Part shown: in pieces, positions 2,468 to 59,704 of the stretch
How the letters are laid out: each line of letters begins with the position of its first letter
Position numbering within the stretch: position 1 is the stretch's first letter
From: Escherichia coli
GTDB lineage: Bacteria > Pseudomonadota > Gammaproteobacteria > Enterobacterales > Enterobacteriaceae
NCBI RefSeq assembly: GCF_046105845.1
Contig: NZ_CP151004.1
Strand: one strand, 5' to 3'
DNA length: 64,000 nt
Made by a program: the position numbers and the translations under genes
The notes under the pieces: model-generated
The model's database searches: none
What the model saw: only the letters and a program-made list of their open reading frames with translations
What the model was told of the DNA's origin: nothing

Positions 2468-3706
2468 ATGGCTGACACTCGCCCTGAACGTCGCTTTACG
2501 CGCATTGATCGTCTCCCGCCCTACGTTTTTAATATTACCGCTGAACTGAAAATGGCTGCGCGTCGGCGCGGCGAAGATATTATCGATTTCAGTATGGGTA
2601 ACCCGGACGGTGCGACTCCGCCGCACATCGTCGAAAAATTATGTACGGTGGCCCAGCGCCCGGACACGCATGGTTACTCCACTTCACGCGGCATTCCGCG
2701 GCTACGTCGCGCCATTTCACGCTGGTATCAGGATCGCTACGACGTTGAAATCGACCCGGAATCAGAAGCCATCGTCACTATTGGTTCGAAAGAGGGACTG
2801 GCACATCTGATGCTGGCGACGCTGGATCATGGTGACACGGTGCTGGTGCCGAATCCAAGCTACCCCATTCATATTTATGGCGCGGTGATTGCCGGGGCGC
2901 AGGTACGCTCAGTGCCGCTGGTGGAAGGTGTCGATTTCTTCAATGAACTGGAGCGCGCCATTCGCGAAAGTTATCCGAAACCGAAGATGATGATCCTCGG
3001 CTTCCCGTCGAATCCAACCGCGCAATGCGTGGAGCTGGAGTTCTTCGAAAAGGTTGTGGCGCTGGCGAAACGCTACGATGTGCTGGTGGTCCATGACCTG
3101 GCCTATGCCGATATCGTCTACGATGGCTGGAAAGCGCCGTCAATCATGCAGGTGCCGGGTGCACGCGATGTGGCGGTCGAGTTCTTTACGCTGTCGAAAA
3201 GCTACAACATGGCGGGCTGGCGTATCGGCTTTATGGTTGGCAACAAAACGCTGGTCAGCGCGCTGGCACGTATTAAAAGCTATCACGATTACGGCACCTT
3301 TACGCCGTTGCAGGTGGCAGCGATTGCGGCGCTGGAGGGCGATCAACAGTGCGTGCGCGACATTGCTGAACAGTACAAACGCCGCCGTGATGTACTGGTA
3401 AAAGGGCTGCATGAAGCGGGCTGGATGGTCGAAATGCCGAAGGCTTCGATGTATGTCTGGGCGAAAATCCCGGAACCGTATGCTGCCATGGGCTCGCTGG
3501 AATTTGCCAAGAAGCTGCTGAACGAAGCGAAGGTCTGTGTCTCTCCGGGGATTGGCTTTGGCGACTACGGCGACACGCATGTTCGCTTTGCACTGATTGA
3601 AAACCGCGACCGTATTCGTCAGGCGATTCGTGGAATTAAAGCGATGTTCCGTGCCGATGGTTTACTACCCGCCAGCAGCAAACATATTCACGAAAATGCG
3701 GAATAA
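2468..3706 (+). CDS. alaC: glutamate-pyruvate aminotransferase (PLP-dependent class I aminotransferase)
   Basis: 412-aa ORF starting [21 protein letters not shown]; aminotransferase fold motifs; K-12 synteny. Confidence 0.9.
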
Positions 3707-3728
3707 ACACCGACCTCAAAAATGCAAA

Positions 3729-3755
3729 CAGGAGCCTGATGGCTCCTGTTTTTCA
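3729..3755 (+). terminator. rho-independent terminator downstream of alaC
   Basis: Hairpin CAGGAGCC-TGAT-GGCTCCTG followed by a T-run. Confidence 0.7.
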
Positions 3756-3770
3756 TTGCACAGTTTGCTT

Positions 3771-3842
3771 TTAGATCATCAGGGCAAAAGTACCGGCCCA
3801 AACGATGACCATAAAAGAAATGCCCATAAAGAAATATTTCAC
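3771..3842 (-). CDS. ypdK: small membrane protein (23 aa)
   Basis: Minus-strand 24-codon ORF translating to (V/M)KYFFMGISFMVIVWAGTFALMI, matching the recalled K-12 YpdK small protein; GTG start. Confidence 0.5.
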   Translation of the reverse strand: MKYFFMGISFMVIVWAGTFALMI

Positions 3843-4197
3843 TTTACATCTCTCCGCGTAATTACTGTTACGCCTGAATGACTTCATTACACCTGATACA
3901 GTGAGTTGACACCGGGCAAAACGACCTTAAAAGTCCTGTATTTTACCGTGGGCATCACCCCAGAATTCTGAGCTAAACTGCTCCAGACGGCGCTAATGTA
4001 CGCCTAAAACTGAAACGAGACAAGAGGCATTTTCTTATTTACTTTTAGTAACTTACAGGTGTCTCATATCGGCGACAGTTTAATTTCTGGCGGTAATAAT
4101 TAGAGATTCAGCGAAGGAAAAAACCTTAAGAAAAAAGCCATAAAAACCATGAGGTTATTATGGCTGATTTGAGGAGGGAAAGAGTAAGAGCAGTTTG

Positions 4198-5118
4198 TTA
4201 AATGTATAGCGACGATTCTCCCACCGGGCGCGTTTTAAAGCGACGGTGGATCCAGAGGTACTGCTCCGGTGCGCGCATGATCTCTTTTTCGATAATCTTG
4301 TTCATATAGGCAGCGGCTTGATTTTCATCTGCCGGGTAGCCTTCCATCTCTGGGGTGATGTACAAACGATATCCGCTGTAATCCGCTTTTCTTACCATCG
4401 TTACGGTTAACATGGCTGCGCCAGAGAGACGTGAAAGGACATACGTACCATTGGTTGTGGCAACATTTTCCACCGCAAAGAACGGCGCGAAGGAGCTGCC
4501 TTTACGACCATAATCCTGATCGGGAGCAAACCATACCGCTTCACCTTTCTTCAGTGCACCGACAATGCCGCGCAGATTATTTCTGCCGATCATCGCTTTG
4601 TTAGAGCGCATGCGCCCACGGGTCTGCACCCATTCCATCAGCTGATTATTATGTGGACGATAGGTAGCCATCATTGGTTGGCACAGTCCCATCACGCGGC
4701 CGCCCAGTTCCAGCGACATAAAATGGACGCCGACAACCATTACGCCGCGATTTTGCATTTGTGCGCGTTTAAGGTTATCCAACCCTTCAACATCAAACCA
4801 TTTACGTACGCGACTGTCGGGCCAGAACCACGCCATGCCGGTTTCTACCAGCGCCATGCCGAGTGAACGAAAGTTTTCGGCAATCATCTTCTCGCGTTCT
4901 TCCGCAGAATGCTGTGGGAAACAAAGTTCCAGGTTTTTACGGGCGATAGATTCACGCCGTTTCAGGAATGGTCGCGCTATTGCGCCAATACGCGTGCCGA
5001 GAAAGCAGAGAACAGGATAAGGAAGCTGTACCCAAAGCCAGAGTACACCAAGCCCAAACCATGTGAGCCAGTAGCGAGGATGTAGAAACTCGCGGGAAAA
5101 TTTGCATTGTGGAAACAT
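4198..5118 (-). CDS. lpxP: lipid A palmitoleoyl acyltransferase (cold-induced)
   Basis: ORF track 4198..5184; the start is placed at the internal Met (MFPQCKFSREFLHPRYW...) to give the 306-aa length recalled for LpxP; LpxL/LpxP family. Confidence 0.85.
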   Translation of the reverse strand: MFPQCKFSREFLHPRYWLTWFGLGVLWLWVQLPYPVLCFLGTRIGAIARPFLKRRESIARKNLELCFPQHSAEEREKMIAENFRSLGMALVETGMAWFWPDSRVRKWFDVEGLDNLKRAQMQNRGVMVVGVHFMSLELGGRVMGLCQPMMATYRPHNNQLMEWVQTRGRMRSNKAMIGRNNLRGIVGALKKGEAVWFAPDQDYGRKGSSFAPFFAVENVATTNGTYVLSRLSGAAMLTVTMVRKADYSGYRLYITPEMEGYPADENQAAAYMNKIIEKEIMRAPEQYLWIHRRFKTRPVGESSLYI

Positions 5119-5470: not shown

Positions 5471-5713
5471 ATGATTTATTTATGGATGTTTCTCGCCCTG
5501 TGTATTGTCTGCGTAAGCGGCTACATTGGTCAGGTCCTGAACGTGGTATCGGCGGTCTCTTCTTTCTTCGGCATGGTGATCCTCGCTGCACTCATTTATT
5601 ACTTCACCATGTGGTTAACTGGCGGTAATGAACTGGTGACGGGGATATTTATGTTTCTTGCCCCTGCTTGTGGCTTGATGATTCGCTTTATGGTGGGGTA
5701 TGGCAGGCGGTAG
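5471..5713 (+). CDS. yfdY: small inner-membrane protein
   Basis: 80-aa hydrophobic ORF; position between lpxP and ypdI as in K-12. Confidence 0.75.
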   Translation: MIYLWMFLALCIVCVSGYIGQVLNVVSAVSSFFGMVILAALIYYFTMWLTGGNELVTGIFMFLAPACGLMIRFMVGYGRR

Positions 5714-5789
5714 TGGGTCAGGATGGTTCATTTGGGCAGGTGTTCACATCAGCATCAGACATGATTGTTCACCTGCCATGTGACAGACG

Positions 5790-6065
5790 CTATCGCACAG
5801 GATGAATAAGATAATTCGCCTTTGTCGAAAAAGGGGGCGTAATGTCTTCTGTGAGATTTAATGGTGGCGCATCTTCTCTCATCTTAAACAAAATCGCCTG
5901 TGATGGCTGAAGTTTTGTAGAGTGTGTGGTCGTCATCGCTGACGTTTTTTCCGTCTCTTTATAGCTCGCCTCACTACCACCACCAGAAATAGAAAATGCA
6001 AAAACATTGCATGCCATAATAGAGACCAATAAAAATAAGCTAAAAAGCATTAAGTTTACTTTCAT
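5790..6065 (-). CDS. ypdI: predicted lipoprotein
   Basis: 91-aa ORF with signal peptide and lipobox (SIMAC); K-12 synteny. Confidence 0.75.
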   Translation of the reverse strand: MKVNLMLFSLFLLVSIMACNVFAFSISGGGSEASYKETEKTSAMTTTHSTKLQPSQAILFKMREDAPPLNLTEDITPPFSTKANYLIHPVR

Positions 6066-6207
6066 AGAAAGTTATCCTGAAAATGGTTCACTGAAAACCT
6101 ACGACGTTATTGCTGTATTTACATATAATTAATCAGTATTTACATCGATATAATAAATGACATCTCTTTTTGGTATATAAGAATAGTTCTCTGTGACAGG
6201 AAGCATA

Positions 6208-6225
6208 TTCCTACAATTGTAAGAC
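6208..6225. promoter_or_regulatory. EvgA box upstream of yfdX
   Basis: TTCCTACAATTGTAAGAC matches the 18-bp EvgA inverted-repeat consensus TTCPyTACA-N2-TGTAPuGAA. Confidence 0.65.
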
Positions 6226-6360
6226 TAAAATACTTCTTGCGATAATAACTACAACTGTAAGATAACCCTTTCAAAATGACCGTTGCTCTCTGATTTCTCA
6301 TTTCATACTCACCCAATATGATGGCGGCGTTTTCTAAAACTGTTAAAGAATGAGGTAAGT

Positions 6361-6993
6361 ATGAAACGTTTAATTATGGCTACGATGGTCACAGCAATTC
6401 TGGCATCTTCAACTGTATGGGCGGCTGATAATGCACCGGTAGCGGCACAACAGCAAACTCAGCAAGTTCAGCAAACCCAGAAAACGGCAGCAGCAGAGCG
6501 TATCTCTGAACAAGGTTTATATGCGATGCGTGACGTGCAGGTAGCGCGCCTGGCTCTGTTTCATGGCGATCCGGAAAAGGCAAAAGAACTGACCAATGAA
6601 GCTTCAGCTTTGTTGTCAGATGACAGTACCGAATGGGCAAAGTTCGCTAAGCCAGGTAAAAAAACCAATGTCAATGATGACCAATATATTGTCATTAATG
6701 CATCTATCGGAATTTCTGAGAGTTATGTAGCGACACCCGAAAAAGAAGCCGCGATAAAAATTGCCAACGAAAAAATGGCGAAAGGGGATAAAAAGGGCGC
6801 AATGGAAGAGCTTCGCCTGGCCGGTGTTGGCGTAATGGAAAACCAATATCTGATGCCGCTCAAACAGACTCGTAATGCACTTGCTGATGCGCAGAAACTG
6901 CTTGATAAAAAGCAATACTACGAGGCAAACCTGGCGCTTAAAGGTGCGGAAGATGGAATCATCGTCGATAGCGAAGCACTGTTTGTGAACTAA
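6361..6993 (+). CDS. yfdX: EvgA-regulated periplasmic protein (YfdX family)
   Basis: 210-aa ORF with signal peptide ([21 protein letters not shown]); K-12 synteny. Confidence 0.85.
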
Positions 6994-16388: not shown

Positions 16389-17003
16389 TTAGCCGATTTT
16401 GTTACGTTGTGCGAATGTGTAAAGATCCATCAGTGATTTACATTCTAATTTTTCCATCAGGCGACTTTTATAAGTGCTGACAGTTTTGTTGCTGATGAAC
16501 ATTTTTTCCGCAATATCATTATTATCCTTGCCATCAAGAATATATCGCATGACACTAATTTCTTGTTTCGATAAGGAGTCGAGTTTTTGCTGGTCGGACG
16601 TTAAACTTCCAACAAACCGGTTGAGAGAGAAGGGGAAATAGCAGTAGCCATTTTTTGCAGCTTCAATAGCCGCAATGATATTGTTCATGCCTTCTTTTTT
16701 ACTCACGAATCCATTAGCGCCAGCATCAGCACAATGTTTCCCGTAAAAATGGTCATTTTTAGCGGAGACGATAATAATAATTCCGCTATATTGGCGCTTC
16801 CTCAGCGTTTCTAACACCTGGATACCGTTAACTCCGGGGATATCGACATCAATGATGACGATATCAGGTTTAAGTGTTTCCACCCGCTGAACGGCACTTC
16901 CCCCTTCAGTCAACTCCGCTAAGATTTCAATATCGTTTTTGATCAATAAATTACGAATTGCTGCGATAGCAAGAGGATGGTCATCAATAATTATTGCGTT
17001 CAT
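16389..17003 (-). CDS. evgA: NarL/FixJ-family response regulator
   Basis: 204-aa ORF with receiver and LuxR-type HTH; immediately upstream of evgS. Confidence 0.92.
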   Translation of the reverse strand: MNAIIIDDHPLAIAAIRNLLIKNDIEILAELTEGGSAVQRVETLKPDIVIIDVDIPGVNGIQVLETLRKRQYSGIIIIVSAKNDHFYGKHCADAGANGFVSKKEGMNNIIAAIEAAKNGYCYFPFSLNRFVGSLTSDQQKLDSLSKQEISVMRYILDGKDNNDIAEKMFISNKTVSTYKSRLMEKLECKSLMDLYTFAQRNKIG

Positions 17004-17227
17004 AGATTATTCCCTTTGCAATGAAGCATCTCCCTTCTCCCTGTAGTAATACAGACATAAGGCATCATCTCATTTTCTCAATAAAAATAAGAAAATTTGA
17101 GCTTCCTTTAAGATAATTCGACAAGTATACCATATAAATAGTCGGCATATATGAAATGTCAACAATAAAATCAGGGATTGTACCGATTATTTATAGTTTC
17201 ACATTAGTACTATAAGTCTTCTCACTA

Positions 17228-17245
17228 ATCCTACATGCGTAAGAA
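17228..17245. promoter_or_regulatory. EvgA box-like site in the evgA-emrK divergent region
   Basis: ATCCTACATGCGTAAGAA, one mismatch per half-site to the EvgA consensus. Confidence 0.5.
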
Positions 17246-17418
17246 TTGTATTGCAAAAGCCACGGTTTAGTCCTCTGTTGTTTTTTTTGCACCTCATTTA
17301 AATTAGGCCTCCAACGTTCCTGGGATAATGTGCAACACATGCACTGTGTTTGATATGAAGAATGAATAATCATTTCATTCAATTCATAAATTTCATCTAT
17401 GCGAAATGAGAGATAATA

Positions 17419-18582
17419 GTGGAACAGATTAATTCAAATAAAAAACAATCTAACAGAAGAAAATACTTTTCTTTATTGGCGGTAGTTTTATTTATTGCGT
17501 TTTCAGGTGCCTATGCCTATTGGTCAATGGAATTAGAAGACATGATTAGTACAGATGACGCCTATGTCACGGGGAATGCAGATCCAATTTCTGCACAAGT
17601 CTCAGGTAGTGTCACTGTCGTTAATCATAAAGATACGAACTACGTTCGACAAGGTGACATTTTAGTCTCACTGGATAAGACTGATGCCACTATCGCACTC
17701 AATAAAGCTAAAAATAATCTGGCCAATATTGTTCGGCAAACGAATAAACTGTACTTACAGGATAAACAATACAGTGCCGAAGTCGCTTCAGCTCGTATTC
17801 AGTATCAACAATCTTTAGAAGATTATAACCGTCGTGTACCTTTAGCGAAGCAGGGGGTTATTTCAAAAGAAACGCTGGAGCATACCAAAGATACGTTAAT
17901 AAGTAGCAAAGCGGCATTGAATGCTGCTATTCAGGCTTATAAAGCGAATAAAGCTTTAGTAATGAACACACCATTAAACCGTCAGCCACAAGTCGTTGAA
18001 GCGGCGGATGCAACCAAAGAAGCCTGGTTAGCGCTTAAACGTACGGATATTAAGAGTCCGGTTACCGGCTATATTGCCCAGCGAAGTGTTCAGGTCGGCG
18101 AAACAGTGAGTCCCGGACAATCGTTAATGGCTGTCGTACCGGCACGTCAAATGTGGGTTAATGCCAACTTTAAAGAAACACAACTCACGGATGTACGGAT
18201 TGGTCAATCGGTCAATATTATCAGCGATCTTTATGGTGAAAATGTTGTGTTTCATGGTCGGGTGACAGGGATCAATATGGGAACCGGCAATGCGTTCTCC
18301 TTATTACCTGCACAAAATGCGACAGGGAACTGGATCAAAATCGTTCAGCGTGTACCGGTTGAAGTTTCTCTTGATCCAAAAGAACTCATGGAACATCCCT
18401 TACGTATTGGTTTATCGATGACAGCAACTATTGATACGAAGAACGAAGACATTGCCGAGATGCCTGAGCTGGCTTCAACCGTGACGTCCATGCCTGCTTA
18501 TACCAGTAAGGCTTTAGTTATCGATACCAGCCCGATAGAAAAAGAAATTAGCAACATTATTTCGCATAATGGACAACTTTAA
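17419..18582 (+). CDS. emrK: multidrug efflux membrane fusion protein (EmrA/HlyD family)
   Basis: 387-aa ORF with N-terminal TM anchor and periplasmic coiled-coil; paired with an MFS pump gene. Confidence 0.9.
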   Translation: MEQINSNKKQSNRRKYFSLLAVVLFIAFSGAYAYWSMELEDMISTDDAYVTGNADPISAQVSGSVTVVNHKDTNYVRQGDILVSLDKTDATIALNKAKNNLANIVRQTNKLYLQDKQYSAEVASARIQYQQSLEDYNRRVPLAKQGVISKETLEHTKDTLISSKAALNAAIQAYKANKALVMNTPLNRQPQVVEAADATKEAWLALKRTDIKSPVTGYIAQRSVQVGETVSPGQSLMAVVPARQMWVNANFKETQLTDVRIGQSVNIISDLYGENVVFHGRVTGINMGTGNAFSLLPAQNATGNWIKIVQRVPVEVSLDPKELMEHPLRIGLSMTATIDTKNEDIAEMPELASTVTSMPAYTSKALVIDTSPIEKEISNIISHNGQL

Positions 18583-20120
18583 TGGCAATCACTAAATCAA
18601 CTCCGGCACCATTAACCGGTGGGACGTTATGGTGCGTCACTATTGCATTGTCATTAGCGACGTTTATGCAAATGTTGGATTCCACTATTTCTAACGTCGC
18701 AATACCGACAATATCTGGCTTTCTGGGAGCATCAACAGACGAAGGCACCTGGGTTATCACTTCGTTTGGCGTAGCAAATGCCATTGCGATCCCTGTTACC
18801 GGCAGGCTGGCACAAAGAATAGGCGAATTAAGATTATTTTTACTTTCAGTCACTTTTTTTTCGCTGTCTTCATTAATGTGTAGCCTATCGACCAATCTTG
18901 ATGTGCTGATATTTTTTAGAGTCGTTCAGGGGTTAATGGCGGGGCCGTTAATTCCACTGTCACAGAGTTTATTATTAAGGAATTATCCGCCAGAAAAAAG
19001 AACATTTGCTTTGGCATTATGGTCAATGACCGTAATTATCGCTCCGATATGTGGGCCGATATTGGGCGGCTATATTTGCGATAACTTTAGCTGGGGTTGG
19101 ATATTTTTAATCAATGTCCCTATGGGGATTATCGTTCTGACATTATGCTTAACCTTACTTAAAGGAAGAGAAACTGAGACTTCACCGGTCAAAATGAATC
19201 TACCAGGACTAACCCTGTTAGTGCTCGGTGTTGGTGGCTTGCAGATAATGCTTGATAAAGGGCGCGACCTGGATTGGTTCAACTCGAGTACAATAATAAT
19301 ACTAACAGTAGTGTCAGTTATTTCTCTGATTTCTTTAGTCATTTGGGAGTCGACCTCAGAGAACCCGATTCTTGATCTCAGTTTGTTTAAGTCCCGTAAT
19401 TTCACCATTGGTATTGTGAGTATCACATGCGCGTATTTATTTTACTCTGGAGCGATCGTCCTTATGCCGCAGTTACTCCAGGAAACTTTGGGGTATAATG
19501 CGATATGGGCCGGACTTGCTTATGCGCCCATCGGCATCATGCCACTATTAATTTCACCTTTGATAGGACGTTATGGCAACAAAATAGACATGCGGGTGTT
19601 AGTGACATTTAGTTTTTTGATGTATGCGGTTTGCTATTACTGGCGTTCTGTGACATTTATGCCAACGATTGATTTTACAGGCATTATTTTGCCACAGTTT
19701 TTCCAGGGATTCGCCGTTGCCTGTTTCTTTTTACCCTTAACAACGATTTCGTTTTCAGGGTTGCCAGATAATAAATTTGCCAATGCCTCGAGTATGAGTA
19801 ATTTTTTTCGTACCTTGTCAGGATCAGTTGGTACGTCGTTGACAATGACGCTGTGGGGACGACGCGAATCGTTACACCATAGTCAGTTGACAGCAACCAT
19901 CGATCAATTTAACCCCGTGTTTAATTCATCGTCACAAATTATGGATAAATACTATGGTTCGCTTTCAGGAGTTCTTAATGAGATTAATAATGAAATAACC
20001 CAGCAGTCACTTTCTATTTCTGCAAATGAGATTTTCCGTATGGCGGCTATTGCTTTTATCTTACTTACGGTTTTGGTTTGGTTTGCGAAACCGCCCTTTA
20101 CAGCGAAAGGCGTTGGGTGA
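18582..20120 (+). CDS. emrY: MFS multidrug efflux pump (EmrB family, 14 TM)
   Basis: 512-aa polytopic ORF; start overlaps the emrK stop. Confidence 0.9.
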   Translation: MAITKSTPAPLTGGTLWCVTIALSLATFMQMLDSTISNVAIPTISGFLGASTDEGTWVITSFGVANAIAIPVTGRLAQRIGELRLFLLSVTFFSLSSLMCSLSTNLDVLIFFRVVQGLMAGPLIPLSQSLLLRNYPPEKRTFALALWSMTVIIAPICGPILGGYICDNFSWGWIFLINVPMGIIVLTLCLTLLKGRETETSPVKMNLPGLTLLVLGVGGLQIMLDKGRDLDWFNSSTIIILTVVSVISLISLVIWESTSENPILDLSLFKSRNFTIGIVSITCAYLFYSGAIVLMPQLLQETLGYNAIWAGLAYAPIGIMPLLISPLIGRYGNKIDMRVLVTFSFLMYAVCYYWRSVTFMPTIDFTGIILPQFFQGFAVACFFLPLTTISFSGLPDNKFANASSMSNFFRTLSGSVGTSLTMTLWGRRESLHHSQLTATIDQFNPVFNSSSQIMDKYYGSLSGVLNEINNEITQQSLSISANEIFRMAAIAFILLTVLVWFAKPPFTAKGVG

Positions 20121-20227
20121 TGGTAAAAGCAAGGGGTTATAGCGGGTAAGACCGGGGATCTTAAGTCTGCGCCATCGGCAGCATCGCTCACCCAGGGAAA
20201 GGATGGCGATGCTGCATTGAAAATTAA

Positions 20228-21556
20228 TTAGCGGCCTTTTGCCAGATATTGCTCCATCTCTTCTTCCGGCACCATTCCACCTCCCGTCGCCCACACCAGA
20301 TGAGTGGCATTACGCAGTTGTTCTGCGCTGAAACCGTGCATCTGTTGGTAACTTACTGATGCACACACGCGCTGAGGTCCGGCCATACCCGCCAGTGCCG
20401 AAGGTTCAAGACGAATACCTTCTTCCTGCGCCAGCCAGCCAAGCATGTCATACATGGATTGATCGCTAAGGGTATAGAAGCCATCCAGTAGACGCTCCAT
20501 TGCCCGCCCGACAAAGCCTGATGCGCGACCAACTGCAAGGCCATCCGCTGCGGTAAGGTTGTCGATACCAATATCCTGAACAGAAATCTGATCGTGTAAT
20601 CCTGTATGGACGCCTAACAGCATACAAGGGGAGTGCGTTGGTTCGGCAAAAAAGCAGTGAACATGATCGCCAAATGCCAGTTTAAGCCCGAATGCGACGC
20701 CACCAGGACCACCGCCAACACCACACGGCAGATAGACAAACAGAGGGTTATCAGCATCGACAATACGACCTTGCTCGGCAAATTGCGCTTTAAGACGCTG
20801 GCCTGCGACGGAATACCCAAGGAACAACGTGCGGGAATTTTCGTCATCAATAAAGAAACAGTTCGGGTCAGACTGCGCTGCTTTACGTCCTTCCTCGACG
20901 GCAACACCATAATCTTGCTCATATTCCACGACCGTAACGCCATGGCTGCGCAGTTTCGCTTTTTTCCATGCCCGGGCATCAGCAGACATATGCACTGTCA
21001 CCTTAAAGCCAATGCGGGCGCTCATTATGCCGATTGATAACCCCAGATTTCCGGTTGAGCCCACAGCAATGCTGTATTGACTAAAGAACTGTTTAAACTC
21101 CGGAGACAGTAGTTTGCTGTAGTCATCTTCAGGCGTCAGCAACCCCGCTTCCAGAGCCAGTTTTTCTGCGTGTGCCAGGACTTCATAAATCCCGCCGCGT
21201 GCTTTTATGGAGCCGGAAATGGGCAAATGGCTATCTTTTTTCAGTAACAGTTGTCCGCTGATCGGTTGTTGATATTCCTTTTCCAGCCGTTTTTGCATAG
21301 CCGGAATGGCAACCAGTTCTGATTCAATAATCCCCCCAGTGGCAGCAGTTTCAGGAAATGCTTTTGCCAGATAGGGTGCAAAACGAGATAAGCGCGCATG
21401 GGCGTCCTGAACATCCTGTTCGGTCAGGCCAACATAAGGTAAACCTTCAGCCAATGAGGTCGTGCCAGGATTAAACCAGGTGGTTTCTTTAAGAGCAACC
21501 AGATCCTTTACCAACGGATACTGGGCGATGAGCGAGTTCATTTTAGCGTTTTCCAT
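20228..21556 (-). CDS. dsdA: D-serine ammonia-lyase (D-serine dehydratase), PLP-dependent
   Basis: 442-aa ORF containing SGSIKARGG (PLP-lysine motif). Confidence 0.92.
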
Positions 21557-21573
21557 AGTACGTCTCTTTGCGC

Positions 21574-21792
21574 TTAGATGATAAATGACAGCAGGAATGT
21601 GCCCGCCAGAGCGACGACTGAAGCGATAAATGTCGCTGTCGTATAGTATTTAAATGTTTCATTGAGCGTAGCGCCGCAATATTGCTTCACCAGCCAGAAA
21701 AGCGAGTCTGTAACGATCGTGCAGCCAATCGCACCTGAACCGATAGCAATCGCAATAATTTCCGGGCTGATGTCGGGATACAGCGGCAGCAC
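21574..21792 (-). pseudogene. dsdX: 3' remnant of D-serine permease gene (GntP family), truncated by the csc insertion
   Basis: Only a 72-aa hydrophobic C-terminal segment upstream of dsdA; the reading frame hits an in-frame TAA just upstream of 21792; full dsdX (about 445 aa) and dsdC are absent. Confidence 0.75.
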
Positions 21793-22034
21793 AATGATCC
21801 ATATTTATATTTTCTTCTCCAGGTTGGCGATGCCAGTTGGCATGTTTTACCTACTTGCCTATATGGTTACTCGTTGGCGAGAACAGAGGCGGAATTGGGC
21901 ACAATTGTCCGGGAATTATTGTTATTTTTTATTGTATTGCCGTGTCGGGTGATAGGGCGTTGAGAATATCGTTGGATCTCGCCAGTGACGTCTGTTTCTG
22001 CTACAGTGCCCGTTTTACGGCAAACGGCTTGGGT

Positions 22035-23030
22035 ATGGCTTCATTAAAGGATGTCGCACGCCTGGCGGGAGTGTCGATGATGACAGTCTCCCGGGTGATG
22101 CATAATGCAGAATCTGTGCGTCCTGCAACGCGTGACCGCGTATTGCAGGCAATCCAGACCCTGAATTATGTTCCTGATCTTTCCGCCCGTAAGATGCGCG
22201 CTCAAGGACGTAAGCCGTCGACTCTCGCCGTGCTGGCGCAGGACACTGCTACCACTCCTTTCTCTGTTGATATTCTGCTTGCCATTGAGCAAACCGCCAG
22301 CGAGTTCGGCTGGAATAGTTTTTTAATCAATATTTTTTCTGAAGATGACGCTGCCCGCGCGGCACGTCAGCTGCTTGCCCACCGTCCGGATGGCATTATC
22401 TATACTACAATGGGGCTGCGACATATCACGCTGCCTGAGTCTCTGTATGGTGAAAATATTGTATTGGCGAACTGTGTGGCGGATGACCCAGCGTTACCCA
22501 GTTATATCCCTGATGATTACACTGCACAATATGAATCAACACAGCATTTGCTCGCGGCGGGCTATCGTCAACCGTTATGCTTCTGGCTACCGGAAAGTGC
22601 GTTGGCAACAGGGTATCGTCGGCAGGGATTTGAGCAGGCCTGGCGTGATGCTGGACGAGATCTGGCTGAGGTGAAACAATTTCACATGGCAACAGGTGAT
22701 GATCACTACACCGATCTCGCAAGTTTACTCAATGACCACTTCAAATCTGGCAAACCAGATTTTGATGTTCTGATATGTGGTAACGATCGCGCAGCCTTTG
22801 TCGCTTATCAGGTTCTCCTGGCGAAGGGGGTACGTATCCCGCAGGATGTCGCCGTAATGGGCTTTGATAATCTGGTTGGCGTCGGGCATCTGTTTTTACC
22901 GCCGCTGACCACAATTCAGCTTCCACATGACATTATCGGGCGGGAAGCTGCATTGCATATTATTGAAGGTCGTGAAGGGGGAAGAGTGACGCGGATCCCT
23001 TGCCCGCTGTTGATCCGTTGTTCCACCTGA
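22035..23030 (+). CDS. cscR: LacI-family sucrose-operon repressor
   Basis: 331-aa ORF from the ATG at 22035 (MASLKDVARLAGVSMMTVSRVMHN, LacI-type HTH) with periplasmic-binding-protein-like core. Confidence 0.88.
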   Translation: MASLKDVARLAGVSMMTVSRVMHNAESVRPATRDRVLQAIQTLNYVPDLSARKMRAQGRKPSTLAVLAQDTATTPFSVDILLAIEQTASEFGWNSFLINIFSEDDAARAARQLLAHRPDGIIYTTMGLRHITLPESLYGENIVLANCVADDPALPSYIPDDYTAQYESTQHLLAAGYRQPLCFWLPESALATGYRRQGFEQAWRDAGRDLAEVKQFHMATGDDHYTDLASLLNDHFKSGKPDFDVLICGNDRAAFVAYQVLLAKGVRIPQDVAVMGFDNLVGVGHLFLPPLTTIQLPHDIIGREAALHIIEGREGGRVTRIPCPLLIRCST

Positions 23031-23037
23031 TATTATG

Positions 23038-24471
23038 TTAACCCAGTTGCCAGAGTGCTCCATGTTGCAGCACAGCCACTCCGTGGGAGGCATAGAGCGA
23101 CAGTTCCCGTTCTTCTGGCTGCGGATAGATTCGGCTACTCATCACCGTTTCCCCGTCGTTAATAAATACTTCCACGGATGATGTATCGATAAATATCCTT
23201 AGGGCGAGCGTGTCACCCTGCGGGAGGGGAATACTACGGTAGCCGTCTAAATTCTCGTGTGGGTAATATCGCCACAAAACAAGTCGCTCAGATTGGTTAT
23301 CAATATACAGCCGCATTCCAGTGCCGAGCTGTAATCCGTAATGTTCGGCATCACTGTTCTTCAGCGCCCACTGCAACTGAATCTCAACTGCTTGCGCGTT
23401 TTCCTGCAAAACATATTTATTGCTGATTGTGCGGGGAGAGATAGATTGATGCTGCTGGCGTAACGACTCAGCTTCGTGTACCGGGCGTTGTAGGAGTTTG
23501 CCATTGCTCTCTGATAGCTCGCGCGCCAGCGTCATGCAGCCTGCCCAGCCTTCACGTTTTGAGGGCATTGGCGATTCCCACATATCCATCCAGCCGATAA
23601 CAATACGCCGACCATCCTTCGCTACAAAGCTTTGTGGTGCATAAAAGTCATGCCCGTTATCAAGTTCAGTAAAATGCCCGGATTGTGCAAAAAGTCGTCC
23701 AGGCGACCAAATTCCGGGTATTACGCCACTTTGAAAGCGATTTCGATAACTGTATCCCTCGGCATTCATTCCCTGCGGGGAAAACATCAGATAATGCTGA
23801 TCGCCAAGGCTGAAAAAGTCCGGACATTCCCACATATAGCTTTCACCCGCATCAGCGTGGGCCAGTACGCGATCGAAAGTCCATTCACGCAATGAACTGC
23901 CGCGATAAAGCAGGATCTGCCCCGTGTTGCCTGGGTCTTTCGCCCCGACTACCATCCACCATGTGTCGGCTTCACGCCACACTTTAGGATCGCGGAAGTG
24001 CATGATGCCTTCTGGTGGAGTGAGGATCACACCCTGTTTCTCGAAATGAATACCATCCCGACTGGTAGCCAGACATTGTACTTCGCGAATTGCATCGTCA
24101 TTACCTGCACCATCGAGCCAGACGTGTCCGGTGTAGATAAGTGAGAGGACACCATTGTCATCGACAGCACTACCTGAAAAACACCCGTCTTTGTCATTCT
24201 CGTCTCCTGGCGCTAGCGCAATAGGCTCATGCTGCCAGTGGATCATATCGTCGCTGGTGGCATGTCCCCAGTGCATTGGCCCCCAGTGTTCGCTCATCGG
24301 GTGATGTTGATAAAACGCGTGATAACGATCGTTAAACCAGATCAGGCCGTTTGGATCGTTCATCCACCCGGCAGGAGGCGCGAGGTGAAAATGGGGATAG
24401 AAAGTGTTACCTCGGCGCTCGTGAAGTTTTGCTAGTGCGTTTTGCGCCGCATGTAATCGAGATTGCGTCAT
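23038..24471 (-). CDS. cscA: sucrose-6-phosphate hydrolase / invertase (GH32)
   Basis: ORF track 23038..24480; start placed at MTQSRLHAAQ...; GH32 motifs (WMNDPNG, FRDP, WECPD). Confidence 0.9.
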   Translation of the reverse strand: MTQSRLHAAQNALAKLHERRGNTFYPHFHLAPPAGWMNDPNGLIWFNDRYHAFYQHHPMSEHWGPMHWGHATSDDMIHWQHEPIALAPGDENDKDGCFSGSAVDDNGVLSLIYTGHVWLDGAGNDDAIREVQCLATSRDGIHFEKQGVILTPPEGIMHFRDPKVWREADTWWMVVGAKDPGNTGQILLYRGSSLREWTFDRVLAHADAGESYMWECPDFFSLGDQHYLMFSPQGMNAEGYSYRNRFQSGVIPGIWSPGRLFAQSGHFTELDNGHDFYAPQSFVAKDGRRIVIGWMDMWESPMPSKREGWAGCMTLARELSESNGKLLQRPVHEAESLRQQHQSISPRTISNKYVLQENAQAVEIQLQWALKNSDAEHYGLQLGTGMRLYIDNQSERLVLWRYYPHENLDGYRSIPLPQGDTLALRIFIDTSSVEVFINDGETVMSSRIYPQPEERELSLYASHGVAVLQHGALWQLG

Positions 24472-24505
24472 TTTTATCATCCTGGTTAAGCAAACTTGGT
24501 GAATT

Positions 24506-24581
24506 GTTAACGTTAACCTTTATAAAAATAAAGTCCCTTGCTTTCATAAATGCGATGAATATCACAAATGTTAACGTTAAC
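24506..24581. promoter_or_regulatory. cscA-cscKB divergent promoter region with two identical 12-bp palindromes (candidate CscR operators)
   Basis: GTTAACGTTAAC occurs at 24506-24517 and 24570-24581; each is a perfect palindrome. Confidence 0.55.
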
Positions 24582-24686
24582 TATGACGTTTTGTGATCGA
24601 ATATGCATGTTTTAGTAAATCCATGACGATTTTGCGAAAAAGAGGTTTATCACTATGCGTAAGTCAGATGAATTTAAGGGAAAAAA

Positions 24687-25610
24687 ATGTCAGCCAAAGT
24701 ATGGGTTTTAGGGGATGCGGTCGTAGATCTCTTGCCAGAATCAGACGGGCGGCTACTGCCTTGTCCTGGCGGTGCGCCAGCTAACGTTGCGGTGGGAATC
24801 GCCAGATTAGGCGGAATAAGTGGGTTTATAGGTCGGGTGGGGGATGATCCTTTTGGTGCGTTAATGCAAAGAACGCTGCTAACTGAGGGTGTCGATATCA
24901 CGTATCTGAAGCAAGATGAATGGCACCGGACATCCACGGTGCTTGTCGATCTGAACGATCAAGGAGAACGTTCATTTACGTTTATGGTCCGCCCCAGTGC
25001 CGATCTTTTTTTAGAGACGACAGACTTGCCCTGCTGGCGACATGGCGAATGGTTACATCTCTGTTCAATTGCGTTGTCTGCCGAGCCTTCGCGTACCAGC
25101 GCATTTACAGCGATGACGGCGATCCGGCATGCCGGAGGTTTTGTCAGCTTCGATCCCAATATTCGTGAAGATCTATGGCAAGACGAGCATTTGCTCCGCT
25201 TGTGTTTGCGGCAGGCGCTACAACTGGCGGATGTCGTCAAGCTCTCGGAAGAAGAATGGCGACTTATCAGTGGAAAAACACAGAACGATCGGGATATATG
25301 CGCCCTGGCAAAAGAGTATGAGATCGCCATGCTGTTGGTGACTAAAGGTGCAGAAGGGGTGGTGGTCTGTTATCGAGGACAAGTTCACCATTTTGCTGGA
25401 ATGTCTGTGAATTGTGTCGATAGCACGGGGGCGGGAGATGCGTTCGTTGCCGGGTTACTCACAGGTCTGTCCTCTACGGGATTATCTACAGATGAAAGAG
25501 AAATGCGACAAATTATCGATCTCGCTCAACGTTGCGGAGCGCTTGCAGTAACAGCGAAAGGGGCAATGACAGCGCTGCCATGTCGACAAGAACTGGAAAG
25601 TGAGAAGTAA
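24687..25610 (+). CDS. cscK: fructokinase (PfkB/ribokinase family)
   Basis: 307-aa ORF with PfkB signatures (GGAPANVAVG, DSTGAGDAF). Confidence 0.9.
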   Translation: MSAKVWVLGDAVVDLLPESDGRLLPCPGGAPANVAVGIARLGGISGFIGRVGDDPFGALMQRTLLTEGVDITYLKQDEWHRTSTVLVDLNDQGERSFTFMVRPSADLFLETTDLPCWRHGEWLHLCSIALSAEPSRTSAFTAMTAIRHAGGFVSFDPNIREDLWQDEHLLRLCLRQALQLADVVKLSEEEWRLISGKTQNDRDICALAKEYEIAMLLVTKGAEGVVVCYRGQVHHFAGMSVNCVDSTGAGDAFVAGLLTGLSSTGLSTDEREMRQIIDLAQRCGALAVTAKGAMTALPCRQELESEK

Positions 25611-25671
25611 ACGGCGAGGCCGCTCTTATCTCTAAATAGGACATGAATTTTTTAACGACAGGCAGGTAATT

Positions 25672-26919
25672 ATGGCACTGAATATTCCATTCAGAAATGC
25701 GTACTATCGTTTTGCATCCAGTTACTCATTTCTCTTTTTTATTTCCTGGTCGCTGTGGTGGTCGTTATACGCTATTTGGCTGAAAGGACATCTAGGATTA
25801 ACAGGGACTGAATTAGGTACACTTTATTCGGTCAACCAGTTTACCAGCATTCTATTTATGATGTTCTACGGCATCGTTCAGGATAAACTCGGTCTGAAGA
25901 AACCGCTCATCTGGTGTATGAGTTTCATTCTGGTCTTGACCGGACCGTTTATGATTTACGTTTATGAACCGTTACTGCAAAGCAATTTTTCTGTAGGTCT
26001 AATTCTGGGGGCGCTCTTTTTTGGCCTGGGGTATCTGGCGGGATGCGGTTTGCTTGACAGCTTCACTGAAAAAATGGCGCGAAATTTTCATTTCGAATAT
26101 GGAACAGCGCGCGCCTGGGGATCTTTTGGCTATGCTATTGGCGCGTTCTTTGCCGGTATATTTTTTAGTATCAGTCCCCATATCAACTTCTGGTTGGTCT
26201 CGCTATTTGGCGCTGTATTTATGATGATCAACATGCGTTTTAAAGATAAGGATCACCAGTGCATAGCGGCGGATGCGGGAGGGGTAAAAAAAGAGGATTT
26301 TATCGCAGTTTTCAAGGATCGAAACTTCTGGGTTTTTGTCATATTTATTGTGGGGACGTGGTCTTTCTATAACATTTTTGATCAACAACTCTTTCCTGTC
26401 TTTTATGCAGGTTTATTCGAATCACACGATGTAGGAACGCGCCTGTATGGTTATCTCAACTCATTCCAGGTGGTACTCGAAGCGCTGTGCATGGCGATTA
26501 TTCCTTTCTTTGTGAATCGGGTAGGGCCAAAAAATGCATTACTTATCGGTGTTGTGATTATGGCGTTGCGTATCCTTTCCTGCGCGCTGTTCGTTAACCC
26601 CTGGATTATTTCATTAGTGAAGCTGTTACATGCCATTGAGGTTCCACTTTGTGTCATATCCGTCTTCAAATACAGCGTGGCAAACTTTGATAAGCGCCTG
26701 TCGTCGACGATCTTTCTGATTGGTTTTCAAATTGCCAGTTCGCTTGGGATTGTGCTGCTTTCAACGCCGACTGGGATACTCTTTGACCACGCAGGCTACC
26801 AGACAGTTTTCTTCGCAATTTCGGGTATTGTCTGCCTGATGTTGCTATTTGGCATTTTCTTCTTGAGTAAAAAACGCGAGCAAATAGTTATGGAAACGCC
26901 TGTACCTTCAGCAATATAG
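25672..26919 (+). CDS. cscB: sucrose:H+ symporter (MFS, LacY family)
   Basis: 415-aa 12-TM ORF, LacY-like. Confidence 0.9.
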   Translation: MALNIPFRNAYYRFASSYSFLFFISWSLWWSLYAIWLKGHLGLTGTELGTLYSVNQFTSILFMMFYGIVQDKLGLKKPLIWCMSFILVLTGPFMIYVYEPLLQSNFSVGLILGALFFGLGYLAGCGLLDSFTEKMARNFHFEYGTARAWGSFGYAIGAFFAGIFFSISPHINFWLVSLFGAVFMMINMRFKDKDHQCIAADAGGVKKEDFIAVFKDRNFWVFVIFIVGTWSFYNIFDQQLFPVFYAGLFESHDVGTRLYGYLNSFQVVLEALCMAIIPFFVNRVGPKNALLIGVVIMALRILSCALFVNPWIISLVKLLHAIEVPLCVISVFKYSVANFDKRLSSTIFLIGFQIASSLGIVLLSTPTGILFDHAGYQTVFFAISGIVCLMLLFGIFFLSKKREQIVMETPVPSAI

Positions 26920-27360
26920 ACGTAAACTTTTTCCGGTTGTTGTCGATATCTCCATATCCCTCAACCGGAAAATAGTAATACAAAAATGCTTAGCCCAACT
27001 AATAATCACCTAATCCAAACGCCTCATTCATGTTCTGGTACAGTCGCTCAAATGTACTCCGGATACGCGGTTCGCTGATTTCCAGGACATTGTCGTCATT
27101 CAGCGACCTGTCCCGAGTATCACGGGCCTGCGAATTCATCAAGGAATGCATTGCAGAGTGAAGTATCGAGTCACGCCATATTTCGCTATCAGGATTCTGT
27201 ATGATGGTTACATCGCCCGGCCCAGGGCTGTTTAGTCATCAGCGCTTTCTGACAGTGCTGAGATTTCAACCTGTTGCAGTAAAAATGAGTAGATATAGGG
27301 CAAGTGTGCTGCCAAACCCATCTTTTACGGGGTGAAGGTAGATATTGTTAGAAGGGTATC

Positions 27361-27375
27361 TGGTGTCCCCTGCAG
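27361..27375 (-). repeat. attR core: duplicated 3' end of tRNA-Arg (argW)
   Basis: TGGTGTCCCCTGCAG is the reverse complement of the argW acceptor 3' end CTGCAGGGGACACCA (recalled tRNA sequence). Confidence 0.7.
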
Positions 27376-27448
27376 ACATCTACTTGACGCGGCAGGGGAT
27401 TGATTGGAATGGTGTTTTTTGGATGTGAGAAATATTTTACCCGCTATT

Positions 27449-27649
27449 TTACCCATTGGCGCGGCTTAAGAGCTTATTTTTGAATTCACAATGGTCACGA
27501 TATAACCATCTTGCTCGCCCGTGGATAACTTTAGCTTTTGGCAGGTCGCCGGACTTAATCCGGTCATAGATGAAGGTTTTACCGAAGCCAGTATCGGCCA
27601 TGATGAATTTCAAATCAACCAGTGAATCAGGTTGTAGTTCGTGTTGCAT
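27449..27649 (-). CDS. torI: excisionase / recombination directionality factor (TorI family, winged helix)
   Basis: 66-aa product MQHELQPDSLVDLKFIMADTGFGKTFIYDRIKSGDLPKAKVIHGRARWLYRDHCEFKNKLLSRANG matches recalled K-12 KplE1 TorI; the ORF track gives a longer 27449..27664 version. Confidence 0.85.
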   Translation of the reverse strand: MQHELQPDSLVDLKFIMADTGFGKTFIYDRIKSGDLPKAKVIHGRARWLYRDHCEFKNKLLSRANG

Positions 27650-27706
27650 GAGTGCTATCTCCAAATAGGGAATCGAACCTGCAAATCAGGCAATAAAAAA
27701 CCGCCA

Positions 27707-27874
27707 TCAGGCGGCTTGATGTTCTTTCAGTTCTTCAATTCGAATATTGGTTACGTCTGCATGTGCTATCTGCGCCCATATCATCCAGTGGTCATAGCAG
27801 TCGTTGATGTTCTCTGCTTCGATAACTCTGTTGAATGGTTCTCCATTCCATTCACCTGTGACTCGGAAGTGCAT
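27707..27874 (-). CDS. small hypothetical prophage protein (55 aa)
   Basis: ORF MHFRVTGEWNGEPFNRVIEAENINDCYDHWMIWAQIAHADVTNIRIEELKEHQAA, below the ORF-track cut-off; followed on the minus strand by hairpin CCGCC-TGAT-GGCGG plus T-run. Confidence 0.4.
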   Translation of the reverse strand: MHFRVTGEWNGEPFNRVIEAENINDCYDHWMIWAQIAHADVTNIRIEELKEHQAA

Positions 27875-58757: not shown

Positions 58758-58825
58758 AGTTGAAGCCCCAACTGCGGGAACAGTCAGGGCTTCGGTATCA
58801 ACAAATCGGATTAGGAAATATTGAC

Positions 58826-59704
58826 ATGAAAAGTATAGCAAAGGCACAAAACGATTTCACCATCTTCAAATTCGGCGACAGTGAAATCCGCGTCATCAAC
58901 AAATGCGGTGAGCCGTGGTTTGTAGCAAAAGATGTTTGTGATGCTTTAACCCTGACTAACTCACGCAAGGCGCTTACTGCACTTGATGACGATGAAAAGG
59001 GAGTAACTTTAAGTTACACCCTTGGTGGTGAGCAGAATCTAAGCATTGTTAGCGAATCAGGTATGTATACATTGGTTCTGCGCTGCCGCGATGCTGTCAA
59101 TAAAGGTTCGGTCCCGCACAAATTCCGCAAGTGGGTAACAGCAGAAGTTCTACCTTCAATTCGCAAACATGGCGAGTATGTGAAAGGCAAGAAAACCACT
59201 GTTGAGGAAAGAACGCCGCTACGCGATGCAGTAAACATGCTGGTAGGAAAGAAAGGACTTCGCTATGACGATGCATACAATATGGTTCATCAGCGTTTTG
59301 GTATTGACAGCATTGATGAACTTTCAATTGAACAAATCCCGCTGGCCGTAGAGTACATCCACAGGGTAGTGCTTGAAGGCGAGTTTATCGGCAAACAAGA
59401 GAAGAAAGCAAACGAGCTTTCTGCAAAAGAAGCAAACAGCCTTGTATGGCTATGGGATTATGCTAACCGTTCACAGGCATTATTCCGCGAACTGTATCCG
59501 GCATTAAAACAAATTCAATCGAACTATTCCGGCAGATGCTACGACTACGGTCATGAATTCTCGTATGTTATCGGAATGGCGAGAGACGTTTTAATCAATC
59601 ACACACGAGATGTTGATATCAATGAGCCAGACGGACCAGCGAATCTTTCCGCATGGATGAGACTTAAGAATAAAGAATTACCTCCTTCAGTACATAACTA
59701 CTGA
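58826..59704 (+). CDS. ant: antirepressor Ant
   Basis: About 292-aa ORF from [41 protein letters not shown], immediately downstream of arc. Confidence 0.8.

Follow-up and report, generated by a model that had tools for sequence, protein, structure and literature searches.

Among the closest described counterparts of the locus analysed here is the csc regulon of Escherichia coli EC3132 and W. The replacement of dsdC and most of dsdX by csc genes has been known since 1979, with sequence-level mapping in 2002-2006 (Jahreis 2002; Moritz and Welch 2006; Connolly 2015; O'Boyle 2020). The csc-type locus is further supported by PMC7486766, PMC4366372, PMC3032704, PMC11251922, PMC3938415 and PMC13054288. 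Like EC3132 and W, the window (the whole 64-kb stretch of E. coli DNA that was analysed) carries the same four csc genes in the same order and orientation, inserted in dsdX beside the variable argW region (PMC3032704), with two 12-bp inverted repeats in the spacer between cscA and cscK (PMC11251922). One of these two repeats is the site of an up-mutation, as Stephens 2024 (PMC11251922) reports from Jahreis 2002. Against the csc loci compared here only allelic differences were seen, and the window has in addition a P22-like prophage at argW right after the csc tail.

Enterohaemorrhagic E. coli (EHEC) O157:H7 EDL933/TUV93-0 has a dsdX breakpoint identical to that of the window and a 72-codon dsdX remnant with 0 amino acid differences. 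Relative to the window, DsdA has 2 residue differences, CscR 1 and CscB 2. The O157:H7 dsdA is silent and D-serine toxic to the strain, and deletions that bring the gene under cscA promoter control can re-activate it (PMC7486766). Unlike the window, O157:H7 encodes a 304-aa CscK (307 aa here) and has a different, decayed element with a recombinase-family gene right of the att core. This gene appears, from the published deletion size, to be z3622. A z3622-promoter route to dsdA re-activation was rejected for the window, since a different element lies right of the att core in O157:H7 and z3622 has no counterpart here.

The K-12 dsdCXA locus with its KplE1/CPS-53 prophage shares both flanks with the window at 97-98% identity; emrKY plus dsdA form the left flank, the att core plus torI the right one. 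Between them K-12 has 2,368 bp comprising the rest of a full-length dsdX, the dsdX-dsdC control region, dsdC and 95 bp, where the window has 5,569 bp of csc DNA. The K-12 argW prophage is a decayed remnant, whereas the window has a P22-like one that exceeds 36 kb. The PTS-dependent scr regulon of Klebsiella, pUR400 and E. coli B2 lineages also serves sucrose use and also has a LacI-type repressor and a GH32 hydrolase. It differs in using the PTS and the ScrY porin in place of a proton symporter, in its locus and in supporting fast growth (PMC11251922). No scr genes were found within the 64-kb window.

We are highly confident that the dsdA-argW region of the window has the csc-type form that is common in E. 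coli, including the origin, spread and mechanism proposed below. The structure, breakpoints, gene integrity, population frequency and allele sharing of this form come directly from the comparisons made here. By blastn and MAFFT alignment, homology to K-12 ends at position 21791 inside dsdX and is back at 27361, the first base of the att core. To the left lie emrY (18582-20120, plus strand) and an intact dsdA (20228-21556, minus strand; 442 aa, D-serine ammonia-lyase). DsdA is 98.6% identical to the K-12 protein over 443 positions, stop included, and matches NCBIfam TIGR02035 over its full length with 809 bits. What is left of dsdX is its last 71 codons and stop (21574-21791, minus strand), called as a 72-codon ORF at 21574-21792. 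This remnant matched K-12 DsdX residues 374-446 at 98.6% identity by tblastn and positions 374-445 of the 445 in the NCBIfam DsdX profile. The left breakpoint lies at 21791, and on the minus strand an in-frame TAA stands at 21805-21807, four codons upstream of the junction codon. RefSeq labels the same dsdX stretch a partial pseudogene in AST215, in O157:H7 and in 14 others. Thus of the complete 445-aa DsdX with its DsdC-dependent promoter region only residues 375-445 are left, and the dsdX-dsdC intergenic region falls within the lost 2,368 bp. The LysR-type activator gene dsdC, which a functional dsdCXA D-serine tolerance locus needs, was absent from the window: neither the K-12 DsdC protein (tblastn), nor dsdC (blastn), nor the DNA of the deleted K-12 segment matched anywhere in the 64 kb. 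A sequence-only reading of this DNA had proposed that csc genes replaced dsdC and most of dsdX, leaving a C-terminal dsdX remnant with an in-frame stop at the junction and an intact dsdA without its activator in the window. Alignment of the junction with K-12 and with csc-positive strains upheld each of these points, with dsdX incomplete in the window and no dsdC there.

The replacing 5,569 bp consist of intact cscR, cscA, cscK and cscB and a 441-bp tail. The first csc-specific DNA is the 243-bp region upstream of cscR (21792-22034, plus strand), which is conserved in csc-type genomes and showed no K-12 homology by blastn or MAFFT. It is followed by cscR (22035-23030, plus strand; 331 aa), the LacI-family repressor gene of the regulon, and by cscA (23038-24471, minus strand as dsdA; 477 aa), encoding a GH32 sucrose hydrolase (invertase). 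The cscA/cscKB control region (24472-24686) separates cscA from cscK (24687-25610, plus strand; 307 aa, fructokinase) and cscB (25672-26919, plus strand; 415 aa, LacY-like sucrose:H+ symporter). The csc genes named in the sequence-only reading are all present, but it had called cscA, listed after cscR, divergent; cscA is in fact convergent with cscR, their stop codons 7 bp apart, and the divergent pair is cscA and cscKB. The csc gene set of LacI-type repressor, GH32 invertase, fructokinase and LacY-like symporter is complete. All four products and DsdA are full length by NCBIfam and show 0-7 residue differences from AST215, O157:H7 and MG32. CscR gave full-length LacI-family matches, is identical to CscR of AST215 and differs by 1 residue from that of O157:H7. 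CscA matched TIGR01322 over its full length (478 bits), with 3-5 aa differences from three other strains. CscK scored 506 bits against the NCBIfam fructokinase model NF006957, above its cut-off of 450. CscB matched TIGR00882 over its full length (595 bits) and is identical to the MG32 protein. Two of the RefSeq csc loci compared carry the names cscR, cscA, cscK and cscB, and RefSeq uses the name 'sucrose operon repressor CscR' in loci L011 and L015. The control region contains the 12-bp palindrome GTTAACGTTAAC at 24506-24517 and at 24570-24581, the sole two exact copies in the window, and we regard them as putative CscR operators.

The tail of the csc segment (26920-27360, minus strand) runs 441 bp from the cscB stop to the att core. 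It had been described as about 440 bp of non-coding remnant; the length was right, but the tail holds a fragment of a DUF4942 gene. The fragment includes an ORF at 26999-27181 that matched Pfam DUF4942 at model positions 8-62 of 190 (E = 1e-8). Similarity at the DNA level reaches about 27217, and the tail DNA is about 73% identical to complete DUF4942 genes that lie in other islands of E. coli. The 15-bp att core TGGTGTCCCCTGCAG (27361-27375, one copy in the window) is the attR of the prophage, is identical to the 3' end of tRNA-Arg argW and forms the right boundary of the csc/dsdCX variable segment. In a prophage-free csc genome (L004), the 3'-terminal tRNA-Arg base is the counterpart of position 27361. 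In this and other prophage-free csc strains the order is dsdA-dsdX'-cscRAKB-DUF4942'-argW, with the tail abutting an intact argW. Both the breakpoints and these strains place the csc regulon between dsdA/dsdX' and argW.

Regulation and phenotypes of the locus may be read from published experiments on strains of the same architecture. Sucrose would enter through CscB and be split by CscA, and the fructose would be phosphorylated by CscK. The divergent cscA and cscKB promoters would be repressed by CscR at the two 12-bp palindromic operators until sucrose is high. Sucrose-inducible, CscR-repressed, CRP-dependent csc expression and growth on sucrose have been published for EC3132, W and EHEC (PMC3938415, PMC7486766). 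Without a mutation in cscR or cscB, sucrose must exceed 1% for induction (PMC3938415). By analogy, sucrose use should be slow or occur only at high concentration. A plain sucrose-positive call, as had been made from the sequence, agrees with the intact csc genes and with the published strains but is too simple, as csc-only strains mostly grow slowly on sucrose or require it at more than 1%. There is a lesser but appreciable chance that the cluster, though intact by sequence, gives no useful growth on sucrose and that the strain is phenotypically sucrose-negative. In a set of 29 csc+ scr- isolates none grew fast and 5 did not grow, four of them without a visible lesion and the fifth with a cscB frameshift (PMC11251922). 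The window has the wild-type CscR for which more than 1% sucrose is required, and its CscB is wild type at the known up-mutation sites L51, C327, Q353, L363 and F371. Against a sucrose-negative strain, 23 of the same 29 isolates did grow, slowly or very slowly (PMC11251922), the four ORFs are complete and differ little from their counterparts in strains that use sucrose, and both operators and the spacer are intact.

For D-serine, dsdA would stay intact yet silent because neither DsdC nor its target promoter remains. A cell with silent dsdA should therefore fail to use D-serine and should be D-serine-sensitive. This D-serine-negative phenotype, also predicted earlier from the sequence, matches published experiments on identically organised strains. 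D-serine utilisation is lost in E. coli W (Archer 2011, PMC3032704), D-serine use was consistently associated with the dsd locus in a 2026 strain panel (PMC13054288), and D-serine use and csc-type sucrose use are reported to be mutually exclusive (PMC11251922, PMC13054288). We predict that the strain cannot use D-serine and is probably sensitive, which bears on its ability to colonise the urinary tract and other sites rich in D-serine. Where the LEE pathogenicity island is present, D-serine also represses the type 3 secretion system; no LEE was seen in the window. Deletions that bring dsdA under cscA promoter control could restore D-serine tolerance.

The orphan dsdA was intact in 17/17 sampled csc-type loci, with a piN/piS of 0.109, similar to the 0.125 of cscA, and among variants found only in csc-type genomes neutrality was rejected (p=2e-6). 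These values show an orphan gene that is not decaying and that, judged from its variants, is under purifying selection. The variant codons of the dsdX remnant, 9 nonsynonymous to 6 synonymous, are consistent with drift. In a gene that is always silent one would not expect the selection signature of dsdA, unless recombination keeps re-importing alleles from dsd+ strains. Frequent recombination with dsd+ strains would be the main competing explanation of the signature, visible in shared alleles. In two csc-type genomes (L011 and L013) the dsdA DNA is identical to that of K-12, with only 1-2 nt differences from K-12 over the 1,792 nt that precede the junction on its left side. Purifying selection on dsdA as proof of its function in csc strains is weakened, as identical alleles are common to csc-type and dsd-type genomes.

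If the orphan dsdA were selected and expressed without DsdC, D-serine detoxification would be rewired to a sucrose signal and not lost. Its transcripts could, for instance, stem from a weak promoter within the dsdX remnant or read through from the cscA promoter, which sucrose induces. Such read-through would come from the same strand, 1.5 kb upstream, and pass through antisense cscR and the dsdX remnant. Expression of dsdA without DsdC would give conditional D-serine detoxification and explain the intact gene. We consider this rather unlikely. It draws on the contrast between the conserved dsdA and cscA and the drifting dsdX remnant, and on a consensus scan in which the minus strand from the cscA stop to the dsdX remnant had no terminator-like site. 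In EHEC, deletion of cscR alone led to D-serine tolerance and dsdA read density follows that of cscA (PMC7486766). The same study called wild-type EHEC dsdA silent or nonfunctional, and a wild-type fusion of cscAp to dsdA gave a weaker reporter signal than did the deletion alleles (PMC7486766). Rho termination would probably be favoured by the antisense cscR RNA, about 1.2 kb of which is not translated, and with alleles common to dsd+ strains the selection signature may be inherited. A silent dsdA is the reading that we retain for the window.

A second dsdCXA or an scr locus elsewhere in the genome could change both phenotypes. We think it very improbable that D-serine catabolism is kept through a second complete dsdCXA copy, a situation reported for K1 strains and for some of the B2 strains. 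Even with DsdC supplied in trans, the window dsdA would not be activated, since its DsdC-dependent promoter is deleted; the second operon itself would give the D-serine-positive phenotype. Two copies do occur: dsdC was found at 2,936 places in 2,734 of 5,426 complete E. coli genomes, which leaves about 200 genomes with two copies, and the title of Moritz and Welch 2006 gives two copies in K1 strains. A few strains with both loci complete were seen by Stephens 2024 (PMC11251922), and from the counts at least about 20 genomes bearing the csc junction must also carry dsdC. On the other side, AST215, the closest csc-type genome, has one place matching a query that contains dsdA, and the reported mutual exclusion of D-serine and csc-type sucrose use also speaks against it. 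The genomes with the junction (2,662) and with dsdC (2,734) together fall below 5,426, therefore co-occurrence can concern at most a small minority.

The 200-bp junction with the same breakpoint was present in 2,662 of the 5,426 complete E. coli genomes (about 49%), and the whole 7.8-kb arrangement in 2,645. Junction and dsdC counts are nearly complementary. Over the 21.5-kb left flank of the window, none of the complete genomes reaches 99% identity. The replacement of dsdCX by csc is real but ordinary, since about half of the complete genomes have it, and it is already known and of little weight as a discovery, but of use for annotation. An assembly chimera or a chance resemblance has practically no chance of being correct and was refuted by the recurrence of the whole arrangement and of the identical junction in independent complete genomes, together with annotation that agrees across 16 fetched loci and divergence from other strains that is mostly synonymous.

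We infer a single origin and recombinational spread of the csc form. One ancient event would have placed the cscRAKB regulon between the argW 3' end and a point inside dsdX, and the same event would have removed dsdC, the initial 374 codons of dsdX and the promoter region through which DsdC acts on dsdX. The csc and dsdCX forms would since have been alternative cassettes in the species, swapped by homologous recombination between the dsdA/dsdX' flank and argW. Csc-type genomes with a K-12-identical dsdA exist, which therefore points to exchange of the two forms by recombination. The original insertion mechanism left no trace in the form of a second att copy, flanking repeats or IS. Direct or inverted repeats and IS ends were looked for at the csc boundaries and none was found, and a search of the window for a second argW att core, as the far end of an old island, returned only that at 27361 with up to 3 mismatches allowed. 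Other repeats in the interval are the operator palindromes and a 17-nt repeat with 16/17 matches between the dsdX remnant and cscR, which is probably due to chance. A promoter consensus scan of 21400-27500 returned no promoter-like sites; published promoters exist in this interval, so the scan is uninformative and not evidence of absence.

A P22-like prophage would later have integrated at argW, and therefore the attR core adjoins the csc tail. A P22-like prophage follows the csc tail directly in 372 of the complete genomes as well. The attR end of the window prophage (HK620/Sf6/KplE1 module) consists of the att core and an adjoining gene for a TorI-type excisionase (27449-27649, minus strand), the first prophage gene and outside the csc segment. 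Its homologue is annotated torI by RefSeq in AST215 and K-12. The window contains no tRNA, and argW and attL are expected beyond its end, behind the prophage. An Rfam scan of the whole window gave no match inside the csc interval; its sole match was sar RNA, within the prophage. The prophage matches HK620, Sf6 and Gally, and an integrase-like gene with an HGFRH motif enters the window with its last 99 codons (63699-63998, minus strand).

We aligned the window to the K-12 region for breakpoint mapping. Homology was 98% over 17001-21791, was then lost, and restarted at TGGTGTCCCCTGCAG (27361-27375), which occurs as a single copy in the window. The gap holds 5,569 bp in the window compared with 2,368 bp in K-12, the latter comprising dsdX codons 1-374, the control region between dsdX and dsdC, and dsdC itself with 95 bp downstream of it. 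The replacement of dsdC and most of dsdX by csc genes, proposed in the sequence-only reading, thus holds to the exact base. The window and K-12 last agree, on the minus strand, at bases 1 and 2 of the Met374 codon, and because this codon is GTG in the window, the ORF finder gives a 72-codon ORF (21574-21792, minus strand). This ORF matches only positions 374-445 of the 445-position NCBIfam DsdX profile, as expected of the 72-aa C-terminal remnant described. The in-frame stop placed at the junction is a TAA at 21805-21807, four codons upstream of the Met374-position codon. Junction alignment against K-12, suggested as a check, thus gave an incomplete dsdX with its first 374 codons replaced. The K-12 DsdC protein and the DNA of the segment deleted from K-12 found no match across the 64-kb window, which agrees with the claimed absence of dsdC.

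The genes around the junction were located by ORF map. dsdA (20228-21556, minus strand), next to emrY (18582-20120, plus strand), encodes 442 aa and covers the whole NCBIfam D-serine ammonia-lyase profile at 809 bits, so it is intact as stated. The four csc genes also match NCBIfam profiles over their full length: cscR (22035-23030, plus strand, start as in RefSeq) a LacI-family regulator, cscA (23038-24471, minus strand) a GH32 sucrose hydrolase, cscK (24687-25610, plus strand) a fructokinase at 506 bits (cut-off 450), and cscB (25672-26919, plus strand) an oligosaccharide MFS transporter. AST215 encodes an identical CscR and ESBLEC_MG32 an identical CscB, and CscA and CscK show 2-7 residue differences from the three csc-type comparison strains. 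CscK has 307 aa in the window; the O157:H7 allele has 304 aa, as in most of the 16 fetched csc-type loci (L003, L005, L008-L017). One of these 16, from the urine isolate S115 (L013), has an internal stop in cscB (5674-6921 of that locus).

The csc-for-dsdCX swap has been described before and is very common. Of 5,426 complete E. coli genomes, 2,645 cover the 7.8-kb arrangement (window 20000-27800) to 80% or more, and 2,662 do so for a 200-bp probe with the dsdX'/csc junction at its centre. The probe stayed below 80% coverage in the other 2,714 matching genomes, with the dsdX half alone found in the matches listed. One breakpoint common to about 49% of genomes implies that the swap was one ancient event. 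dsdC was found at 2,936 places in 2,734 genomes, and about 200 genomes therefore have two copies. Junction and dsdC are nearly complementary across genomes; those with the junction and dsdC elsewhere are a small minority, yet at least about 20 by the counts.

At the right boundary, the 15-bp core at 27361-27375 forms the attR end of a prophage that has inserted at argW. It is followed by a torI-like gene for a torI-type excisionase (27449-27649, minus strand) and further phage genes, and this csc-attR-torI junction is common to 372 complete E. coli genomes. Prophage-free csc-type genomes such as ESBLEC_MG32 have the 441-bp tail after cscB joined directly to an intact tRNA-Arg gene argW, to whose 3'-terminal base window position 27361 aligns. 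The variable segment thus runs from an arbitrary point in dsdX to the exact 3' end of argW. The tail had been described as about 440 bp of non-coding remnant; the length holds, but the tail contains a DUF4942 gene fragment (ORF 26999-27181, minus strand; Pfam E=1e-8, model positions 8-62 of 190), and 27016-27217 has about 73% DNA identity with full DUF4942 genes of other E. coli islands. A right boundary exactly at the tRNA 3' end and an island-type gene fragment in the tail together fit an origin in which an element integrated at argW would have brought in the csc genes and would later have lost its distal end in a deletion that also took dsdC and most of dsdX. No second att copy was found in the window, nor flanking repeats or IS elements at the csc boundaries.

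Two csc-type loci (L011 and L013) have dsdA DNA identical to that of K-12, and left of the junction their positions 1-1792 depart from 3001-4792 of the K-12 region (L002) at just 1-2 of 1,792 nt; the difference common to both sits 73 nt from the breakpoint. Such a flank implies recent switching, the csc and dsdCX forms having evidently been swapped onto the same flank by homologous recombination, which agrees with published descriptions of a "recombination hotspot".

Whether the orphan dsdA is decaying was addressed as a side result on a small sample, 16 csc-type loci fetched across the identity range and nine dsd-type loci including K-12. dsdA was intact in 17/17 csc-type loci, with piS 0.041 and piN/piS 0.109, against 0.073 in the nine dsd-type loci; over the same 17 loci piN/piS was 0.125 for cscA, 0.146 for cscR and 0.054 for cscB. 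The dsdX remnant, with nine nonsynonymous and six synonymous variant codons, differs from dsdA in this ratio (Fisher p=0.016). Variants of dsdA private to csc-type loci (19 synonymous, 10 nonsynonymous) depart strongly from neutrality (binomial p=2e-6), and relaxation was not significantly greater than among dsd-type-private variants (53:11; p=0.11). Since csc-type and dsd-type dsdA alleles are intermixed, this constraint may be inherited from time in dsd+ backgrounds. A DsdC-independent role of dsdA in csc strains has a low probability.

The D-serine-negative phenotype predicted earlier is supported by published work on strains of the same architecture, D-serine use being consistently tied to the dsd locus in a 2026 strain panel (PMC13054288); a second dsdCXA copy outside the window would overturn the prediction. 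O'Boyle et al. reported that deletions setting the silent dsdA under the cscA promoter re-activate it, and that cscR deletion alone gives D-serine tolerance. As cscA, cscR, dsdX' and dsdA are laid out identically in the window, this route is predicted to be open in its strain. The second route of O'Boyle et al. uses the promoter of z3622, a gene that appears to be specific to O157 and to lie to the right of the att core in O157:H7; it is absent here. A consensus scan between cscA and the dsdX remnant gave no minus-strand terminator-like site; an untranslated antisense cscR RNA of about 1.2 kb would favour Rho termination. A 17-nt direct repeat with 16/17 identical bases, GTAACGATCG[T/C]GCAGCC, lies at 21710-21726 (dsdX remnant) and 22780-22796 (3' part of cscR). 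It is probably a chance match; recombination between its copies would remove most of cscR and move cscA nearer dsdA, a deletion of the kind that re-activates dsdA in EHEC.

The cscA-cscK spacer contains the palindrome GTTAACGTTAAC in two exact copies 64 bp apart, with no further copies in the window. They agree with the two 12-bp inverted repeats, one with an up-mutation, of Jahreis 2002 as given by Stephens 2024 (PMC11251922). Growth on low sucrose is enabled by mutation at CscB L51, C327, Q353, L363 or F371 or by CscR truncation (PMC3938415). All five sites are wild type here and CscR is untruncated, so the ordinary csc phenotype is expected, in which growth is slow and induction requires more than about 1% sucrose. 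Growth of 29 csc+ scr- isolates was slow or very slow in 23, absent in five and fast in none (PMC11251922). The sucrose-positive prediction is too plain as worded, and slow or conditional growth describes it better.

Everything right of 27361 (27361-64000) is a P22-like prophage running past the window end. Its matches to phages Gally, N7, HK620 and Sf6 have a query coverage of 52-66% and an identity of 96-97%. An integrase-like gene (63699-63998, minus strand; last 99 codons, HGFRH motif) extends beyond the window end, and no tRNA gene was found across the window, so argW lies beyond it. A sar RNA (58758-58824, minus strand; Rfam 71.6 bits, gathering score 43) overlaps the start of the anti-repressor gene ant (58760-59704, plus strand; PHROG 245, E=4e-114). 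Together these are a P22-type immI region, which is not always present in HK620/Sf6 relatives. PHROG matches to the 779-aa tailspike (59805-62144, plus strand) are nearly all limited to the N-terminal 116-126 or so residues, the head-binding domain, and two extend to about 200. The receptor-binding part had no good PHROG family match, so its O-antigen specificity may be uncommon. An O-acetyltransferase-like gene of 392 aa (62204-63382, minus strand; PHROG 3333, E=1e-52), followed by an AT-rich spacer, lies between tailspike and integrase and probably serves lysogenic conversion by O-antigen modification.

The left flank (1-21500) is core E. coli sequence with ypdA, oxc, evgS, emrKY, dsdA and others. 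Its top identity over 21.5 kb was 98.8% among the 5,426 complete genomes, with none at 99% or above, and the window dsdA is at least 16 nt from each sampled allele. The flank may come from a poorly sampled lineage or be mosaic near the argW hotspot.
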